UHGV virus genome: UHGV-0070184
DNA: 18,747 bases
Origin: a virus
Strand: one strand, 5' to 3'
The position numbers and the translations under genes are program-made. The notes under the pieces are model-generated. The model was not told the DNA's origin and did not search any database. It worked only from the letters and a program-made list of their open reading frames with translations. Positions 8,246 to 16,978 of the stretch are shown here, piece after piece (the stretch's first letter is position 1; each line of letters begins with the position of its first letter).

Positions 8246-8581
8246 ATGAACAATATTCCCCCTATACCACAGTTAGGAATTTATGTCTCAAAAATCGATC
8301 CCACCCTACGTATCACTGTAACCGATGTTGATATTGTTGATGGTGAGGATGATTCTCCTGATGATGAATTGTTTTATTTAGTCCACTGGATCGAGGGGGA
8401 AGATGAAAGTGATATGACAGCAATGGAATTTGAGCTAGACCCAGTAGAGTGGCAGGCTTTCGTTGAATCTGAGCAATTAGTGTTTGAGCGTGATCCGTAC
8501 ATGGATTCAATCCCCGAAAATTCAAACTTGGCAAAGATTCGGGATTTTCTCATGAAGACTAAACAGAATGATCATTCGTAA
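8246..8581 (+). CDS. small highly acidic protein, 111 aa, unknown function
   Basis: ATG at 8246 with AAAGGAG about 7 nt upstream; by my count 15 Asp + 12 Glu against 7 Lys/Arg (net charge about -20); acidic runs DVDIVDGEDDSPDDE and EGEDESD. Confidence 0.7.
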   Translation: MNNIPPIPQLGIYVSKIDPTLRITVTDVDIVDGEDDSPDDELFYLVHWIEGEDESDMTAMEFELDPVEWQAFVESEQLVFERDPYMDSIPENSNLAKIRDFLMKTKQNDHS

Positions 8582-8774
8582 GTGTAAGCATCCATCAGGA
8601 AAATGGTTTTGTAAGTGAATCATCAACTTTTAGAGAGTCTCAGACACTCCCACTTCTGCTTCTGACACAAAGCGGACGATCACTTATCAAAAATAACCGC
8701 CCACCTTACGCCTTATTTCACTCATTGCCCAAACTAGCCCCCATCAGAATGAATCCTCCTGGGGGCAACGTTTC

Positions 8775-9008
8775 TTAATGCAGCCAGCTGTCGTCCTCCC
8801 ACACCTTCTGCATAATTTTCATCACTTGTTTTCTTTCTTCATCCAGTTGCAGTCCGGTTAGTTCCACACCGTTAGAGCTACCTTTGCGAATGCGAATTAC
8901 CGTTTTGGGATACAGGGGGCGCAGATTGCGGTAAAGCTCGGATTCAAGGGCGTCCAGGGTAGACTGGCTAATCTTCTGCTCTTTATCGATCATTATTTCA
9001 ATGCGCAT
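8775..9008 (-). CDS. DinI-family protein, 77 aa
   Basis: Internal ATG at 9006-9008 of ORF 8775..9080, preceded by GAGGTGA; product MRIEIMIDKEQKISQSTLDALESELYRNL...MQKVWEDDSWLH follows the DinI pattern (MRIEV..., C-terminal ..TWE..D.W). Lies downstream of a LexA box. Confidence 0.75.
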   Translation of the reverse strand: MRIEIMIDKEQKISQSTLDALESELYRNLRPLYPKTVIRIRKGSSNGVELTGLQLDEERKQVMKIMQKVWEDDSWLH

Positions 9009-9018
9009 AAAAGTCACC

Positions 9019-9207
9019 TCAGCTGATGACATCCATTGAGCGGTTGTATTCGTGGGTTCTGATTTTTGCCATGAGTTCATCAGTCAATTCAGAAACCCAC
9101 TGCAGAGCCAGCCCCTTCTCTTCATCACTACACTCACTGGCCGCTACAAGCTTAAGAAAAAAATCAATGCGCTGGAGCTTCAAAGACTCCAAAAAATAGT
9201 CCTGCAT
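9019..9207 (-). CDS. small protein (62 aa), first gene of SOS-controlled operon; possible Tum-like antirepressor component
   Basis: ATG at 9205-9207 with GGAGGA about 7 nt upstream; about 45 bp downstream of a perfect LexA box; followed by the DinI-like gene. The 186 analogy (LexA-controlled tum in the region beyond A) is from memory. Confidence 0.55.
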   Translation of the reverse strand: MQDYFLESLKLQRIDFFLKLVAASECSDEEKGLALQWVSELTDELMAKIRTHEYNRSMDVIS

Positions 9208-9249
9208 CTTTCCTCCTATGACACCAAAACAATACTGTATACATAACCA

Positions 9250-9265
9250 CTGTTTATATTTACAG
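9250..9265. promoter_or_regulatory. LexA (SOS) box, CTGT-N8-ACAG
   Basis: caCTGTttatatttACAGta at 9248-9267, a perfect match to the enterobacterial LexA half-sites, just upstream of the minus-strand small ORF / DinI operon. Confidence 0.65.
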
Positions 9266-9360
9266 TATATAATAATCTTACTGATGTAAAACGTTTTTTT
9301 TACGTTCATCGGCCTGATATGCCTGGTATTATTAAGAGCACGAATTGTTAACCCGCGTAA

Positions 9361-11775
9361 TTAATACAGGTTCCGCCACTTATCATCTTCCTTCAGACGC
9401 TGGTTCCGATAGAAGATACGCAGGCCTGCTCCTGACGGAATACTGCCGCCGCGAAGGAGCAAATCGACTTCTTTCTCGCTGCCATCAAATCCCCTGGACT
9501 TCAGTTCATAGACGAGCTGCTGTCGCTGATGGTCTGTAATTCGCTGTTTGTAGTCTTTACGCCGTTTCGGTTTCACCTGGCGTAACCTTGCAGCCAGTTC
9601 CCGGCGCTCTTTTTTGCTCATACTGTGCAGGTAATCGTGCAACTCCTTGTCATTCATACGGGTAATATCCGTTCTGGAGTCCCCATCAGCTGATTTGTCT
9701 TTCCCTTGTTGGTACAAATTTTCACCAAGGGGACAGTTATTGCCACGAGTCCAAGGGGCGCAAGCGCCCTGGTCGGCTGCCGCCTCCTGAACGTCAACGG
9801 CTTTACGAACCATTTTCCACTTCACTGCATGAGTGCAGATCTTGCCCTCTGCAATGGGTGACCAGATGCCATAAATACGAATACCGTGATCGCCATAGGC
9901 GGTCGGCTCTTCGTTGATTTCATAAGCGGTTCTGATGAGGTGATATTTACGGGGAACCAGTACGCCGCCCTGCTTCATGATGTAGGAGGCAAAGCAACCA
10001 GCATCAGCTGCAGCCAGAATGGCATCAAGGCGCGGGTTATCCAGTACCGGCGCACCTGCTTTTTTGTCACCCTGTTGCCTTGCCGCCTGACCAGCCAACA
10101 ATCGCAGTTCACGGTAAGCCTGACGCCCCGGAATGCCAAAGAAGCGGAATTGCTGAACACGATGCAGAGACGCCCAGGCATTAACGTATTCAGCGTTATC
10201 ACGCAGAGATTTCCCCGTTTCCTTGCTGATCTCGCCAGCCAGACCACGCCCGTCAATGTTCTTACTGATGTATTTCGCGATATAGCTTGTTGGCGTACCT
10301 TTGCGCGGGTTAATCAACTCAGACTTAAAGCGCGGCCCAGTGTTATTGCCCAGCTCCTCGCGGTCTTCACGGATGGCAAACTTACGCAGTAATGCAGTGA
10401 TGGCGCGGCGGTCTTTTTTGCGCATAAAACACAACAGGTGCCAGTGAACTGTACCGTCATGATGCGGCTCAGCCACCCGCACGCCATACCAGCGCAATCC
10501 GGCTTTGTGCATCGCCTTACGAAATGCAGCAAACATGCCGACCAGATAATCACTACTTTGTCTTACCGTCGCATTTGTCCAGGTTGGGTTGGGCCTGCCG
10601 TTATTTAGCGTGGAATGGAAACGTGACGGACAGGTGATGGTGTAGAAAACGGCGCAGTCACCGCGCATTTCCGCGATAAGCTCCAGACCTTTAACACAGG
10701 CCATCATCTCATTGCGGCGATGCGCAGGGTTGCTGCTGCTGGCGTTTACCACATCCTCCATGTCCAGCGTGTCGCCGTCTTCGTTCACCAGTTCATGAGA
10801 ACGGAAAAACTCCAGCGACTTACGGCGCTGCTCACGTTTATGCATCACGGCTTCATAGCTGACATAAGGAGATGCTTTTTTGCTGACCAGGCAGACAGCG
10901 CGCAACTGCTCTTCCCGCCATTCGCAACGCATCTTCCATAATTTCCGATACCACCAGTCGGCGCACAACATACGCGCCAGCGAACCCGGAATGAGTTCAT
11001 AGGGCACGGGTTTACGGCGGTTTCTTTTCCAGCGGAGTTGTTCAAACGCAGGTGGGATGACATCCAGACGCAGGGTTTCCGCTGCCACCTTTTCCCATGT
11101 CTTGCGGATTTCTTCTGGCTTAACATCATCGGTGGCGTACAAATCACCACAAGCGGCATCAAGACACATGCTCATATGCGCAGCGACAAGAGTAGACAGG
11201 CGTTTCACCTGATCCTGACTCATTTCAGGCAGGATCAGCAGGCCGTCCAGCCCTTCATGGCTTGCCATAAAGCGAAAAGAAGTGGATAGCTGACTGTCGC
11301 GTACATGCTCCAGTCGTTCCAGACATGGCTTAATCGTCTCACGCAAATAGCGGGAATAAGCCTTTGGCCTGCCCAGGCTGCTGAAGTATTCAATACGTTG
11401 CATCAGCGGCTTGCTGATATGGGAAGGCTGGGCGTTTACGTCCGCCAGAATGACCATGTCTGGATTAAAACGCTGCTGCTCATGCGCCAGCTTTGCCCGG
11501 CTAATGAGCTTATCCTGCTCCATTTCGCGCTGGACAGGATCACGGGATTCATTAAAGAAATAACGCTCCCAGACCTGCTCACTCAGTGCCTCGCGGCGCA
11601 GTTGTTCCTGTTCGTTATCGGCAGCGTACAGAGTGATCAGGTTTGAAAGTGCAGACTCCGGCGCAACTTCCGCCGGATCCAGATAAGGGTTAATGGCCTT
11701 TTTCGGGCCGTTCCATGAAAATGATGCAGCGGCCTCGTTAAAGCCGCTAGAGTTGCTCATATCGTCATGACTCAT
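9361..11775 (-). CDS. A: replication initiation endonuclease (P2 gpA family, rolling-circle HUH nickase), 804 aa
   Basis: HUH motif ..[13 protein letters not shown].., candidate catalytic tyrosine pair [11 protein letters not shown], size typical of gpA; ATG 11773-11775 overlaps the dam stop (ATGA). Confidence 0.9.
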
Positions 11776-13916: not shown

Positions 13917-14426
13917 TCACAGCAAACCGAATGAAGCACCGAGGCCAGTCACGGTATCAACTGCACTCGCCATCGCAGGATTAGCCTGTAAACGGGCCTG
14001 CAATGAAACAGCCGCCAGCGCCATCAGTCGTGTTACAGAATTAATGCTGCTGATCGCATCGCGACGGCCTGCACTGGTTTTTACATCGCCAGAAACCGCA
14101 CCTGCAGCAACACGCCCGATCTCTGCGGTTGCACTCATGACGTAATGTGGCAGTCTCTCTTTTGCCACCTCATTTACCGGTATACATGGCAGGCAGTGAA
14201 TCTGAGCCAGAAATCCATCAACCAGTGTTGGGTCTTCAGTGAGATCGGTTAACTGCCAGATATCTGACGCAGTAAGTTGGTGTGGTTGTTCCGGGTTGAG
14301 CTTGTTACGCAAGGTTTGAACGTTCATACCTGCGCGCTCTGCCAGCTTCGCCATGTTGTGTCGTAGGGCGAAGGCCCGGCAGGCTTCATTGAAATGGGGA
14401 TGTTTTGAAATGCGATAGTCAAACAT
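13917..14426 (-). CDS. cII: phage regulatory protein CII (186 type), 169 aa
   Basis: 169-aa product with ...MAKLAERAGMNVQTLRNKLNPEQPHQLT... HTH and C-terminal ..RLQANPAMASAVDTVTGLGASFGLL, recalled as 186 CII family; sits downstream of apl. Confidence 0.8.
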   Translation of the reverse strand: MFDYRISKHPHFNEACRAFALRHNMAKLAERAGMNVQTLRNKLNPEQPHQLTASDIWQLTDLTEDPTLVDGFLAQIHCLPCIPVNEVAKERLPHYVMSATAEIGRVAAGAVSGDVKTSAGRRDAISSINSVTRLMALAAVSLQARLQANPAMASAVDTVTGLGASFGLL

Positions 14427-14680: not shown

Positions 14681-14805
14681 GATGCAACATTCCTCTTTTA
14701 GCAATGATTAATCAGGATGAATACTGATCGTTTGTATTATGTGAACACTGCAAACATACGATCACATCATGAAATCGTCAAGGTAAAAGTTCACTTGGAG
14801 TGACC
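14681..14805. promoter_or_regulatory. lysis-lysogeny switch region (pR/pL promoters and operators)
   Basis: Intergenic between apl (-) and cI (+). Candidate minus-strand promoter: -35 TTGACG (14776-14781), 17-nt spacer, -10 TATGTT (14753-14758). Imperfect inverted repeat TGATCGTTTG (14725-14734) / CAAACATACGATCA (14751-14764) flanks it. Confidence 0.45.
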
Positions 14806-15369
14806 ATGAATTTGGAAAAAGGCGGTCGTGGGGCCATAGAGCGCATGGTTGAAGCCTATGGTTTCAAGACAAGACAAGCTTTGTGTGATCATTTGGGCAT
14901 TTCTAAAAGCACCTTAGCCACGCGCTATATGCGTGATTCATTCCCGGCAGAATGGGTAATCCAATGTGCACTTGAAACCGGCACGTCGCTAGAGTGGCTA
15001 ACTACTGGGCAAGGTTCAAAAGAAAGTTCACAAAAAGAAAACACAAAAGAGATCGAAAGGAAGATTTTATCAAGCGGAAAACTACTTCCTGATGGTTACT
15101 ACATTTTCGACAACAACTTTTTGCCTGAAAAACTAAAAAAACCTTTTGTTGTGATCGATGGCGCATCAGAGTTTATCTGTGATTCGGATTATGAGGATGT
15201 ACGTGATGGTAAGTGGATCGTTGATATTGATGGCGAGGTTGCTATCAGGAATCTGACAAGACTGCCGGGACGTCGTCTAAATGTCGATGGCGGCAGCAGT
15301 TCCTTTGAATGCAAAATAGATGAAATTGATATCATAGGAAAAATTAGAAGCGCGATCGTCAATTATTAA
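14806..15369 (+). CDS. cI: CI repressor (186 type), 187 aa
   Basis: Pattern ..EAYGF......C.HLGIS.STL..RY.R......W...CALETG..L.WLTTGQG recalled from 186-family CI; GGAG 5 nt upstream of ATG 14806 (the track start at 14800 is GTG). Confidence 0.8.
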
Positions 15370-15392
15370 AATTAATGTATAAGGAAATAAAT

Positions 15393-15578
15393 ATGTTTTA
15401 TAAATCTATACATATCCTACTTATTTGTTTATTTATTACTTTACCTATTACAAGTTTTGCAAAAAATTATCCATGTTCTGGTAAGAAAGGGGGAGTTTCA
15501 CATTGTACATCTGATGGGAAGTTCGTTTGCAATGATGGAACGCAAAGCAAGTCAAAGAAAATATGTTCTAAAAACTAA
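15393..15578 (+). CDS. small secreted Cys-rich protein (61 aa; predicted signal peptide plus about 38-aa basic mature peptide with 4 Cys)
   Basis: ATG 15393 with AGGA about 8 nt upstream; N-terminal hydrophobic stretch ending ..SFA, then [38 protein letters not shown]; very AT-rich; stop 11 nt before the KAP NTPase start. Confidence 0.5.
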
Positions 15579-15589
15579 GGTTGCTTCAT

Positions 15590-16921
15590 ATGAATAATGA
15601 TATGACTTTTGAAAACAGAGATGAGTATAATAGAAAAATCATTGCTGAAAAAATAATAAGCTTACTCGAGTCCCCCTTAAAAATATCCCCTATTGTTATC
15701 GATGGGGACTGGGGTACCGGTAAAACCGAATTTTCAAAAAAATTAGCGGCATTGATTGAAAAAAATGAATCTGGGCATAAAGTAGTATATATTGATGCAT
15801 TTACTGAAGATCATAATGATGCTCCCATACTTACTATAATGGCTGCAATAGTTGCATTATATCCAGAGAGTGAAAAGAAGGAATTAATATCAAAGGCATT
15901 ACCAGCATTGAGATTTGGACTTAAAACTGTACTCAAAGCTGGCGCTGGGTGGATTTTAAAACAAAATGCAGATGATATTGCGGATGAATTCGAAGATGCT
16001 ATTAAAGATGCGGCTAACTCAGCTATAGATGGTACTGTAGAAGCACTGCTTGATGATCATATTGAAGCAAAGAAACATTTGCTTGCTCTCAAGGAAGTAC
16101 TTGCTGAACTAACTAGCGAAAATAAAATAACAATTATCATTGACGAACTTGACCGTTGTGAACCAAGCTTTGCCATCTCTATCATCGAAAATATAAAACA
16201 TGTTTTTGACACTGAAAATCTTAACTTCTTGTTAGTTGCTAACATCTCACAATTGAAAGCATCAATAAATCATATTTACGGTGCAGGTGTTGACTCAGAA
16301 AGATATCTTGATAAATTTATAAAATTCACTTACAGCCTGCCAGTGACTTTCACTGAAAACAATTACGATAAAATTTTGGCTTCGAACTCTCATTTTAGAA
16401 TGCTATGTAACGAGTCTGAAAGACTAAAAGAAATTGGAGAAAGTAGTATTCATATAGTTCAAAAATTTATCGAACTAAAAGGCTTGTCGCTACGGGAAGT
16501 TGAAACCTTATCAAGATATCTAGAAATTTATCAAATTTTATCTCAAAATGAAATCAGCAATAAATTTATACCAGGCTATTGCTGTTATCGAACCCTTGCA
16601 GTAATTCTTTATTCGTTTGGTCGTGAACTGGCCCTTAACTACGTAGAAGATAAAATAGATGCACAATTAATAATCAATTTCTTCGGTGTTAATAGACTCC
16701 CATATCAGACAGATCAATATAACATCAACATCTACTATTATGCATTATTTGGTATAACTTATAAATATATGCCAGAAGGTTCTCCTTTACTTCCTTCTGA
16801 AAACGATGAAAAAAACAGATGGGCTGAAATAAGTGATTATCATATTTTAAAAGGAAATGCAGGTGTAGAAGACCCTGTTAGAATATTCAAAAACACCTTA
16901 AAAGTTTTCTTGCTCCAATGA
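15590..16921 (+). CDS. KAP-family P-loop NTPase, 443 aa
   Basis: Walker A GDWGTGKT (G-W-G-GKT form) and Walker B IIIDELDRCEP (DxLDR form), both as I recall for the KAP family; hydrophobic segments lie between them; strongly AT-rich. Start taken as ATG 15590 (the track start at 15581 is TTG). Confidence 0.8.
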   Translation: MNNDMTFENRDEYNRKIIAEKIISLLESPLKISPIVIDGDWGTGKTEFSKKLAALIEKNESGHKVVYIDAFTEDHNDAPILTIMAAIVALYPESEKKELISKALPALRFGLKTVLKAGAGWILKQNADDIADEFEDAIKDAANSAIDGTVEALLDDHIEAKKHLLALKEVLAELTSENKITIIIDELDRCEPSFAISIIENIKHVFDTENLNFLLVANISQLKASINHIYGAGVDSERYLDKFIKFTYSLPVTFTENNYDKILASNSHFRMLCNESERLKEIGESSIHIVQKFIELKGLSLREVETLSRYLEIYQILSQNEISNKFIPGYCCYRTLAVILYSFGRELALNYVEDKIDAQLIINFFGVNRLPYQTDQYNINIYYYALFGITYKYMPEGSPLLPSENDEKNRWAEISDYHILKGNAGVEDPVRIFKNTLKVFLLQ

Positions 16922-16978
16922 AATGTTTGATTGAAGATCTTTAAACATTGACCACTGTTCAAACATACAGTTAAATTT

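Follow-up and report, generated by a model that had tools for sequence, protein, structure and literature searches.

The DNA analysed here, a viral stretch of 18,747 nucleotides referred to as the window, carries a two-gene module that we read, with a probability of about 0.88, as the SOS operon of a Fels-2/DuoHS-type (186-like, Peduoviridae) E. coli prophage, in which an antirepressor, TumA, and a second protein, TumB, would be under the control of LexA. The tumA/tumB switch is already known and ordinary, as it is near-identical to the DuoHS module that has been tested by deletion. What was observed directly for the window comprises its sequence features, homologies, conservation, and near-identity to this experimentally tested module. 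On this reading the prophage would belong to the SOS-inducible, antirepressor-driven branch of the P2-like phages. The features of the operon and its upstream neighbour are as follows.

9361-11775, minus strand: gene A (replication), upstream neighbour of tumA on the same strand
9285..9290, minus strand: predicted Ptum -35 hexamer TTTACA, with conserved spacing to TACTGT
9262..9267, minus strand: predicted Ptum -10 hexamer TACTGT, doubling as left arm of SOS box 1; in the 186 annotation it is the -10 of p95
9248..9267, minus strand: SOS (LexA) box 1, TACTGTAAATATAAACAGTG, with a perfect CTGT-N8-ACAG at 9250-9265
9233..9252, minus strand: SOS box 2, CAGTGGTTATGTATACAGTA, offset by 15 bp from box 1; 15.5 bits
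9019..9207, minus strand: tumA, antirepressor gene, 62 aa, homologous to the N-terminal half of 186 Tum
8775..9008, minus strand: tumB, DinI-family protein, 77 aa, homologous to the C-terminal half of 186 Tum
8737..8766, minus strand: GC-rich hairpin GCCCCCA...TGGGGGC, directly 3' of the tumB stop and present in the minimum-energy fold

The sequence-only reading of this DNA had placed a perfect LexA box at 9250-9265, about 45 bp upstream of a 62-aa ORF, and had proposed that it be scored with a weight matrix. CTGT-N8-ACAG is indeed there, and the distance measured from the end of the box to the tumA ATG at 9207 is 42 nt. With a LexA weight matrix trained on 28 E. coli sites, the 20-mer at 9248-9267 scored 23.7 bits compared to the training median of 20.1. 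The window has two sites of at least 20 bits, a score that was not reached in any of 500 first-order Markov simulations, and three sites of at least 15 bits compared to 0.04 expected from the same simulations, and the best unrelated site in the window after the LexA boxes scored 7.9 bits. CTGT-N8-ACAG itself occurs twice in the window compared to 0.17 expected, the other copy being at 16955-16970. The sequence of box 1 is identical in Fels-2, Cartapus, Kp4845-2, and DuoHS.

Between the hexamer TTTACA and the downstream TACTGT there are exactly 17 nt in the window, Fels-2, Cartapus, SEN8, and the Klebsiella phage ST13-OXA48phi12.1, with a spacer whose sequence diverges, and this layout parallels that of the annotated 186 p95, TTCACA-18-TACTGT. 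Because a generic sigma-70 scan of 8400-9500 called no promoter, Ptum being below its threshold, Ptum was assigned from the comparison with 186 p95 and from the conserved spacing. Transcription from Ptum would start near 9255. The hairpin at 8737-8766 is possibly the end of the operon, as a putative terminator, a role that we only infer since its T-run is not clear. An Rfam scan of the window gave no match at either threshold.

What had been noted beside box 1 as a neighbouring half-site is present but was under-read, as it is a second SOS box of 15.5 bits that overlaps the first, the 16-mers CTGTAAATATAAACAG and GTGGTTATGTATACAG of the two boxes having one common base, the G at 9250. The 38-bp operator is identical at 34 of 38 positions, flanking bases included, to the operator upstream of the colicin R gene cra and at 32 of 38 positions to that upstream of the pesticin gene pst, and in blastn it matched more than 150 small plasmids with 85-87.5% identity over about 47 bp, the matches abutting cra and pst. 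The geometry of the two boxes, a 15-bp offset with one shared base, is the same in the pColR and pPCP1 operators. The systems differ in that the boxes of pColR lie downstream of a separate -10 whereas in Ptum box 1 contains the -10, and in that a toxin is regulated by the colicin and pesticin operators whereas Ptum regulates a prophage antirepressor. In colicin operators with two overlapping SOS boxes, two LexA dimers are bound and basal expression is undetectable (PMC2994835). By analogy, two LexA dimers may cooperatively occupy the predicted dual operator of Ptum, and such a colicin-type operator would probably repress more tightly, and let the promoter fire later, than the single box found in 186 and in PSP3.

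The second element could instead be a decayed relic, with LexA binding box 1 only and the likeness to the colicin operators arising from constraints that LexA sites share. Box 2 has GTGG and not CTGT as its left arm, and a single SOS box is found, and suffices, in 186, PSP3, 613R3, and ESSI2. Box 2 scored 15.5 bits here and just 10.0-10.2 bits in SEN8 and Kp4845-2, and therefore it may not bind LexA in all the relatives. However, SEN8 and ST13-OXA48phi12.1, although divergent, retain its geometry, lineages with diverged flanks still have the right-arm ACAG and the offset of 15 bp, and in ST13-OXA48phi12.1 box 2 reaches 18.4 bits. Moreover, the second boxes of the colicin R and pesticin operators score lower than box 2 of the window (12.6 and 13.6 bits, respectively), although binding of two LexA dimers is reported for colicin dual boxes, and the match to the colicin R operator extends to the flanking bases. 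We consider a relic the less likely reading and favour the dual operator.

The sequence-only reading had also reported that the 62-aa ORF and the DinI-family ORF overlap at 9019-9080 and had left it undecided whether they are two genes or one frameshifted tum. The overlap is an artefact of taking the longest ORF, 9080 being the most upstream ATG of the DinI frame, whereas the tumB start at 9008 is backed by four lines, namely the alignment to the DinI structure 1ghh, the PSP3 start, the Fels-2 start, and the RefSeq annotation. Thus, tumA runs from the ATG at 9207 to the TGA at 9019 and tumB from the ATG at 9008 to the TAA at 8775, and the reading frame changes across a spacer of 10 nt. Strong ribosome-binding sites had been claimed for both ORFs and were found for both, AGGAGGA at 9211-9217 for tumA and GAGGTGA at 9014-9020 for tumB. 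There is no continuous frame of the kind that a fused single-ORF Tum would have, as the TGA at 9019-9021 splits the halves. Of the 5426 complete E. coli genomes compared, 1083 have the module, with 95-99% identity. The stop, the 10-nt spacer, the ribosome-binding site, and the ATG are identical in Fels-2, Cartapus, DuoHS, and others, and in SEN8 and ST13-OXA48phi12.1 the spacers differ and the two-gene layout is the same. A weak hairpin at 9013-9030, which spans the tumA stop and the tumB ribosome-binding site, is not conserved in SEN8 or ST13-OXA48phi12.1.

Since the two ORFs are in different frames and jointly span the length of 186 Tum, they could be taken for a single 186-type tum gene broken by a frameshift or nonsense mutation, in which case the induction gene would be a pseudogene. 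We give this next to no weight, because an arrangement found in that many complete E. coli genomes (1083 of 5426) rules out a frameshifted gene. Conservation of the junction across Fels-2, Cartapus, DuoHS, and others, and of the layout where the spacers differ, speaks against it as well. So do the independent split in PSP3 and the fact that DuoHS, with the same arrangement, is fully inducible (PMC12055606). In addition, all 87 TumA-family representatives found with a HMMER profile search over 1.84 billion representatives, a search that did not reach the fused 186 form, are small and stand-alone, with a C-terminal DinI extension in 0 of them. Of the two options, the comparisons thus resolve the question for a genuine and conserved two-gene arrangement, and that of a frameshift falls.

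An alignment to 186 tum, suggested earlier as a way of deciding whether the two ORFs correspond to one gene, identified the pair as a split tum: TumA and TumB concatenated (139 aa) gave one tblastn segment with 186 Tum, covering residues 7-137 with 29.5% identity and an E value of 2e-18. For TumA and the 186 Tum N-terminus BLASTP gave no alignment, and a shuffle-calibrated Smith-Waterman test was used in its place. Against the N-terminal 70 residues of 186 Tum, TumA scored 57 compared to 21.4 +/- 4.0 for shuffles (Z 8.8, 0/2000), and the alignment is ungapped, covering residues 7-41 in both proteins. TumA does not match the phrog_189 profile. Given the negative BLASTP and phrog_189 results, homology between TumA and the N-terminus of 186 Tum is weak, and its support comes from the shuffle test and from synteny, tum being directly downstream of gene A in the window as in 186, PSP3, Fels-2, and DuoHS. 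The AlphaFold2 model of TumA is a two-helix hairpin with a pLDDT of 90, and when this model was compared with the PDB by Foldseek, the hits were generic helical hairpins alone, none of them significant. In ESSI2-type phages there is a tumA-like gene with a LexA box and without a DinI gene, and TumA types and TumB types recombine independently of each other; both observations fit two autonomous functions.

That the 62-aa ORF is followed, in a different frame, by a DinI-family ORF had been stated before and was borne out by a match of TumB to Pfam PF06183 (DinI) with an E value of 6.6e-23 and 81.3 bits compared to a cutoff of 24.2. The match is full-length, residues 14-76 of TumB covering profile positions 1-63 of 63. 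The score against the NCBIfam DinI equivalog was 42.7, below the cutoff of 111, and therefore TumB is a member of the DinI family and not an orthologue of the host DinI. Against PDB 1ghh, which is E. coli DinI, the E value was 1e-5 and the alignment starts from residue 1. TumB is 100% identical to Fels-2 STM2726.1 and DuoHS ECHS_RS04500, 78% identical to PSP3 TumB, and 42% identical to residues 71-146 of 186 Tum. As judged from its family membership, TumB most likely modulates the RecA filament and hence how strong the SOS signal is or how long it lasts; TumB would probably not act on CI.

The closest tested relative is DuoHS of E. coli HS, in which Δtum (ECHS_RS04495) and lexA(Ind-) each abolish lysis and virion foci induced by mitomycin C (PMC12055606). 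The published junction primers of this Δtum map to 9205-9227 and 8999-9021 of the window and from these positions it follows that the deletion removes exactly the 62-aa ORF and leaves the tumB start intact (PMC12055606). The deletion shows that tumA is necessary for induction; the sufficiency of tumA and the dispensability of TumB lie outside its reach. DuoHS resembles the window in TumA (98.4% identical, ECHS_RS04495), in TumB, in a near-identical dual operator, in the position of tum after gene A, in an integration site adjacent to rcdA, and in Int (96.5% identical). It differs in CI, which is 70.6% identical, and in its cargo, both 3' of tumB and in the interval from cI to int.

From these comparisons the following sequence of events can be proposed. 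In the lysogen, LexA on the two overlapping SOS boxes would keep the operon silent, LexA on box 1 covering the -10 of Ptum (TTTACA-N17-TACTGT) and box 2 covering the start site and the early transcribed region. Upon DNA damage, active RecA would bring about self-cleavage of LexA and Ptum would fire, giving a transcript that encodes both TumA and TumB. TumA would then inactivate the 186-type CI, most likely by a binding that blocks operator binding, like 186 Tum, and thereby release the early lytic promoter, and TumB, as a stand-alone DinI homologue, would most likely tune the RecA filament. The p95 promoter of 186, which LexA regulates, drives expression of Tum, an anti-CI factor (PMC7708051). 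Binding of CI by TumA in the window prophage is suggested by this analogy, and the requirement for tumA and for a cleavable LexA has been shown on near-identical or homologous modules elsewhere. The presumed target is encoded in the window together with a 186-type CII.

14800..15369, plus strand: cI, 186-type immunity repressor and likely target of TumA (Pfam Phage_CI_repr E 3e-33, Phage_CI_C E 6e-29)
13917-14426: CII (CP76), 186-type

The earlier proposal that the prophage is probably SOS-inducible by the 186 mechanism is thus supported, through the near-identical DuoHS module (PMC12055606) and the 186-type CI and CII. The CI of the window is 37% identical to 186 CI and at most 55% identical to any phage CI in the collection compared. 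Since it is at most 55% identical to these and just 70.6% identical to the DuoHS CI, the action of TumA on it is put forward as probable. One may ask whether the module is SOS-regulated and yet does not control induction, being a RecA modulator of the DinI type or having a TumA that is blind to a divergent CI. The distances between the CIs would allow this, as would a TumA for which Pfam, NCBIfam, and PHROGs hold no annotated family or function. However, TumA that is 94-100% identical accompanies, in other prophages, CIs that are 40-55% identical to the window CI, and deletion of tumA in DuoHS abolishes induction (PMC12055606), which makes a module without a role in induction quite improbable. 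Near-identical TumA with divergent CIs fits a generalist antirepressor, as described for the Gifsy antirepressors (PMC3121763).

The control of induction by tumA can be compared with that in other relatives. In Fels-2 of Salmonella (STM2728 / STM2726.1) the stretch between the end of gene A and the tumB stop is about 97% identical in nucleotides, the proteins TumA and TumB are 98.4% and 100% identical, respectively, and the same two SOS boxes are present. The similarity ends at the tumB stop (8777), after which Fels-2 has an orf97-like gene, and the cI of Fels-2 abuts int without a leader carrying a LexA box. Bunny et al. 2002 reportedly traced lexA-null lethality to the tum homologue of Fels-2. 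PSP3 has a named tumA/tumB split after gene A and behind a LexA box, and its tumA is annotated as 'similar to 5' end 186 tum; UV induction of prophage'. However, PSP3 TumA is of another sequence type (about 22% identity), the split is by an in-frame stop with a 3-nt gap, and there is a single consensus SOS box of 28.4 bits. That tum is split in two in Fels-2 and PSP3 has been stated, as has, from a personal communication cited second-hand, that the upstream gene of PSP3 has the antirepressor activity (PMC3121763).

186 shares with the window a LexA box over the TACTGT -10, the position of tum after gene A, a 186-type CI as target, and an antirepressor N-terminal part and a DinI-like C-terminal part homologous to TumA and TumB. 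The DinI-like part of 186 is also made separately, from an internal ribosome-binding site and GTG, and is annotated as 'truncated Tum - modulates SOS induction'. The differences are a fused ORF of 146 aa, one SOS box, orf97 downstream, and low identity, 42% for TumB and about 16% globally for TumA. The Gifsy phages likewise have a single LexA-regulated operon with a small antirepressor and a DinI homologue (PMC3121763), but there the two genes stand in the opposite order, and neither the antirepressor nor the repressor is of a related family.

Besides the two boxes at Ptum, a LexA box lies in the leader of int.

16948..17003, plus strand: candidate second SOS-controlled promoter, for int, proposed from conservation

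The order in this leader is TTGACC, a LexA box at 16953-16972, TTAAAT, and a hairpin at 16979-16998 followed by T6, and the Shine-Dalgarno sequence of int lies within the hairpin. The LexA box and the hairpin are directly upstream of int and are conserved in every related locus examined. The LexA sites of the window number exactly three, and the whole DuoHS prophage likewise has these three and none besides. Going by conservation, the candidate int promoter may be under LexA control. We tentatively suggest, at somewhat less than even odds, that P2-like prophages of this class have a two-promoter SOS regulon, made of Ptum with its colicin/pesticin-like dual operator and of a LexA-repressed int promoter with a hairpin switch. 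The predicted start of the int promoter would fall within the 5' arm of the hairpin, which in other transcripts would act as a terminator and hide the int ribosome-binding site. Int would then be expressed from SOS-initiated transcripts alone, and read-through from cI and from inserted defence cargo would be blocked. The dual operator of Ptum, perhaps taken over from colicin and pesticin promoters or held in common with them, would make induction a late SOS event under tight repression. No description of a colicin-type dual operator on Ptum or of a LexA-repressed int promoter was found in the searchable literature. The dual operator, the near-invariant TumA with divergent CIs, and the int leader bear on the tightness and lateness of induction and on the commitment to excision.

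Finally, these results bear on annotation. No Pfam or NCBIfam family matches TumA, its match in PHROGs, phrog_698, is labelled 'unknown function', RefSeq labels it "hypothetical protein", and a literature search found no use of the names TumA and TumB. The 62-aa "hypothetical protein" encoded in about 20% of complete E. coli genomes would thus be a Tum antirepressor. The label 'levan regulatory protein', which TumA carries in UniRef/GenBank, was rejected as the supporting domain is absent. Some gene callers stretch the tumA ORF upstream across its own operator.

The tum module of this prophage is of an already known kind and is essentially the same as one that has been tested in E. coli HS. 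Its layout, from replication gene A to a hairpin 3' of the DinI-family gene, is given below (window coordinates; tumA and tumB are the 62-aa and the DinI-family ORF, Ptum is their promoter, and box 1 and box 2 are SOS boxes).

9361, minus: end of replication gene A
9290-9285, minus: TTTACA, 17 bases from TACTGT
9267-9262, minus: TACTGT, the start of the 20-mer TACTGTAAATATAAACAGTG
9267-9248, minus: box 1, 20-mer TACTGTAAATATAAACAGTG, holding the perfect CTGT-N8-ACAG (9250-9265)
9252-9233, minus: box 2, 20-mer CAGTGGTTATGTATACAGTA, overlapping TACTGTAAATATAAACAGTG
9217-9211, minus: AGGAGGA, 5' of the tumA ATG at 9207
9207-9019, minus: tumA, 62 codons, ATG 9207 to TGA 9021-9019
9020-9014, minus: GAGGTGA, 5' of the tumB ATG at 9008
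9008-8775, minus: tumB, 77 codons, ATG 9008 to TAA 8777-8775
8737-8766, minus: GC-rich hairpin, possible operon end

The perfect CTGT-N8-ACAG that the sequence-only reading had placed at 9250-9265 is present, and this pattern occurs twice in the window against 0.17 expected. When the window was scored with a symmetrised LexA weight matrix made from 28 E. coli sites (training sites 12.6-26.5 bits, median 20.1), the three best sites were 9248-9267 (box 1, 23.7 bits), 16953-16972 (20.1 bits), and 9233-9252 (box 2, 15.5 bits), and the next best was 7.9 bits. Simulating the window 500 times with a first-order Markov model gave on average 0.04 sites scoring 15 bits or more, and no site that reached 20 bits. 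Transcription from Ptum probably starts near 9255 and the tum operon would terminate at the GC-rich hairpin.

The 62-aa ORF followed by a DinI-family ORF was also borne out, each with its ribosome-binding site, AGGAGGA and GAGGTGA. TumB belongs to the DinI family as a full-length member (Pfam PF06183, E 6.6e-23), and its alignment with E. coli DinI (PDB 1ghh) begins at TumB residue 1. TumA has no family in Pfam or NCBIfam and belongs to phrog_698, 'unknown function'. When TumA and TumB were joined and compared with phage 186 Tum, a single tblastn segment covered Tum residues 7-137 (29.5% identity, E 2e-18), in agreement with the proposed relation to 186 tum. BLASTP between TumA and residues 1-70 of 186 Tum found nothing; the Smith-Waterman score against the 186 Tum N-terminus was 57, compared to 21.4 +/- 4.0 in 2000 shuffles, none of which was as high (Z 8.8), and this alignment is ungapped over residues 7-41 in both. 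The 186 N-terminus relates equally well to PSP3 TumA (Z 8.2) and to the ESSI2 homologue (Z 9.4). AlphaFold2 predicts TumA with confidence as a two-helix hairpin (residues 2-23 and 28-61, pLDDT 90.2) that has no specific structural relative.

It had been left open whether the two ORFs are two genes or one frameshifted Tum-like gene, and the supposed ORF overlap at 9019-9080 does not stand, since the 101-aa ORF from 9080 is a mere extension to the first upstream ATG and tumB opens at 9008. The same applies to a 96-aa version of tumA from 9309, whose translation would run through its own operator, promoter and both SOS boxes. Many database TumA entries (P0002, P0005, P0007-P0009) run to 87-96 aa, since gene callers choose the upstream ATG (9309 in the window; 9207-9309, minus). 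The names 'levan regulatory protein' and 'levan regulatory domain protein' on some of them are unsupported. Starting at the end of gene A and up to the stop of tumB, the sequence is about 97% identical to Fels-2 (STM2728 and STM2726.1) and likewise to dozens of Peduoviridae of Escherichia, Klebsiella and Salmonella; the tumA/tumB junction of Cartapus is the same as in the window, and in SEN8 and ST13-OXA48phi12.1 the spacers are different with the layout of stop, RBS and ATG unchanged. The 518-nt module, counted as present at a coverage of at least 80%, was found in 1083/5426 complete E. coli genomes, where most copies are 95-99% identical and the annotation is 'hypothetical protein' and 'DinI-like family protein'. 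Among 1.84 billion representative proteins, a profile search picked out 87 TumA-like representatives, nearly all of 35-100 aa, and a C-terminal DinI extension was found in none of the 87. The conserved junctions and layout, the E. coli genomes and these stand-alone TumA representatives make a broken single tum gene very unlikely. The Tum halves also reassort: in 613R3 (L009 556-972) the TumA is of PSP3 type and the TumB of 186 type, and PSP3 (L003 1456-1875) has its own TumA with a Fels-2-like TumB. ESSI2-type phages have a LexA-boxed tumA-like gene without any DinI gene (70 aa in ESSI2_ev015, L008 1201-1413). The same split is annotated in PSP3, tumA as 'similar to 5' end 186 tum; UV induction of prophage' and tumB as 'similar to dinI and 3' end of 186 tum', and in 186 an internal AAGGAGGG-GTG start makes the DinI-like part separately, annotated 'truncated Tum - modulates SOS induction'. 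A weak hairpin GTCATC...GGTGAC (9013-9030, minus) covers both the stop codon of tumA and the ribosome-binding site of tumB and could couple tumB translation to that of tumA; neither SEN8 nor ST13-OXA48phi12.1 conserves this hairpin.

The E. coli HS prophage DuoHS adjoins rcdA, as does the window prophage (rcdA, a TetR-family gene, is at 18161-18727). Compared to the window, its TumA is 98.4% identical (one T51S change), TumB 100%, A 96.9%, Int 96.5%, CII 89.9% and CI 70.6%, and its Ptum region is nearly identical. The lethality of lexA-null in Salmonella was reportedly ascribed to the Fels-2 tum homologue by Bunny et al. in 2002. In DuoHS, mitomycin C-induced lysis and virion foci were abolished by a markerless 'delta-tum' (ECHS_RS04495) and likewise by lexA(Ind-) (PMC12055606). 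In the delta-tum primers NHR24 and NHR28 the ATG of the 62-aa ORF is joined to its TGA, and GGTGACTTTTATGCGCATTG, the tumB start, is retained; on the window their junctions fall at 9205-9227 and 8999-9021. A need for tumA and for cleavable LexA has been shown on near-identical or homologous modules, which supports the earlier proposal of SOS induction by the 186 mechanism. According to Lemire et al., tum is split in two in Fels-2 and PSP3 and the PSP3 antirepressor activity is in the upstream gene (PMC3121763); 186 Tum has been described as an anti-CI factor whose expression comes from LexA-regulated p95 (PMC7708051), and STM2726-STM2727-STM2728 are in an operon-analysis list for mutagen-treated Salmonella (PMC2225428).

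TumA would bind the CI of this prophage and TumB would modulate RecA filaments. The window encodes a 186-type CI (14800-15369, plus; Phage_CI_repr and Phage_CI_C) and CII. In phages with a CI only 40-55% identical to that of the window, TumA is 94-100% conserved; in RE2010, TumAB is 93% and CI 40% identical. Judged from these identities, the antirepressor TumA and its presumed target CI are evolutionarily uncoupled, and the pairing of a near-invariant TumA with divergent CIs suggests recognition by TumA of some conserved CI feature. In the phage collection no CI is more than 55% identical to that of the window.

The element beside the perfect box, which had been read as a half-site, is a second SOS box offset by 15 bp from box 1, and the two 16-mers share one base. 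MAFFT aligned the single 186/PSP3 box opposite box 2; in functional terms the 186 layout is matched by box 1, whose left arm is the -10 TACTGT. The 15-bp geometry is kept in SEN8 and ST13-OXA48phi12.1 despite diverged flanks, with box 2 at 10.2 and 18.4 bits, respectively. When the 101-bp promoter region was compared with plasmids by blastn, more than 150 small mobilisable plasmids matched over about 47 bp at 85-87.5% identity, with the matches directly 5' of the genes for colicin R and pesticin (the latter on Yersinia pestis pPCP1). The 38-bp operator is identical at 34/38 positions to that of colicin R and 32/38 to that of pesticin, and box 2 has a higher score in the window than in either (12.6 and 13.6 bits). 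Because colicin-type dual SOS-box operators are reported to bind two LexA dimers and show no detectable basal expression (PMC2994835), we infer by analogy that Ptum of the Fels-2/DuoHS lineage would be under tighter repression than the single-box promoters of 186, PSP3, 613R3 and ESSI2. That box 2 is a relic is rather unlikely, and it keeps some weight because box 2 is weak (~10 bits) in two relatives. The colicin-type dual operator on Ptum may be undescribed.

The remaining high-scoring LexA site lies in the int leader.

16948-17006, plus: int leader cassette
16953-16972, plus: third LexA box CACTGTTCAAACATACAGTT, 20.1 bits, filling the spacer between the promoter-like hexamers of TTGACC-17/18-TTAAAT/TAAATT
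16979-16998, plus: terminator-like hairpin and T6, directly after the LexA box

The 3' arm of the hairpin contains the int Shine-Dalgarno sequence, just 5' of ATG 17004. The cassette is also in 813R9, 4LV2017, ESSI2_ev040 and DuoHS, and in 80/80 IMG/VR loci with the same integrase, where 22 different leader sequences carry boxes scoring 16.7-25.7 bits, whereas in 186 and Fels-2 cI abuts int and the leader is absent. The hairpin is maintained through a compensatory change (T-A to C-G) and G-U changes, and in ESSI2 with a wholly different stem; the sequence 5' of ACATTGA varies from locus to locus. The predicted start is in or past the 5' arm, and RNA begun at 16984 loses the hairpin (-3.1 kcal/mol, no better than shuffles). 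Together with the conservation of box and hairpin, this points to a possible LexA-repressed int promoter, from which transcripts would escape a terminator/RBS trap that would block read-through; the supply of Int during lysogenisation, when LexA is intact, is a difficulty for it. No description of this arrangement was found in the searchable literature and it may be undescribed.

Fels-2 similarity stops at the tumB stop. About 60 nt past it, a 22-bp hairpin with several G-U pairs (8664-8712, minus) forms on the tum-operon strand only, with a fold z-score of -4.4 for the region and without a T-run or Rfam match. The genes 3' of tumB and between cI and int are as follows.

6476-7759, minus: 427-aa AAA-type ATPase, matching PADLOC candidate PDC-S59 (E 3e-36)
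8246-8581, plus: convergent 111-aa ORF, phrog_17127, function unknown
in 15375-16921, plus: 67-aa ORF, PRK10040-like small protein, between cI and int
in 15375-16921, plus: 446-aa KAP-family P-loop NTPase, matching PADLOC defence candidate PDC-S20 (E 7e-171)

The KAP-family NTPase has weaker matches to PifA and QatA. Both cargo positions vary in relatives. In the variable region 3' of tumB (6476-8581), the whole 3-kb arrangement is shared with one complete E. coli genome only, SW071618, and about 19 different sequences lie between cI and int across the IMG/VR loci.
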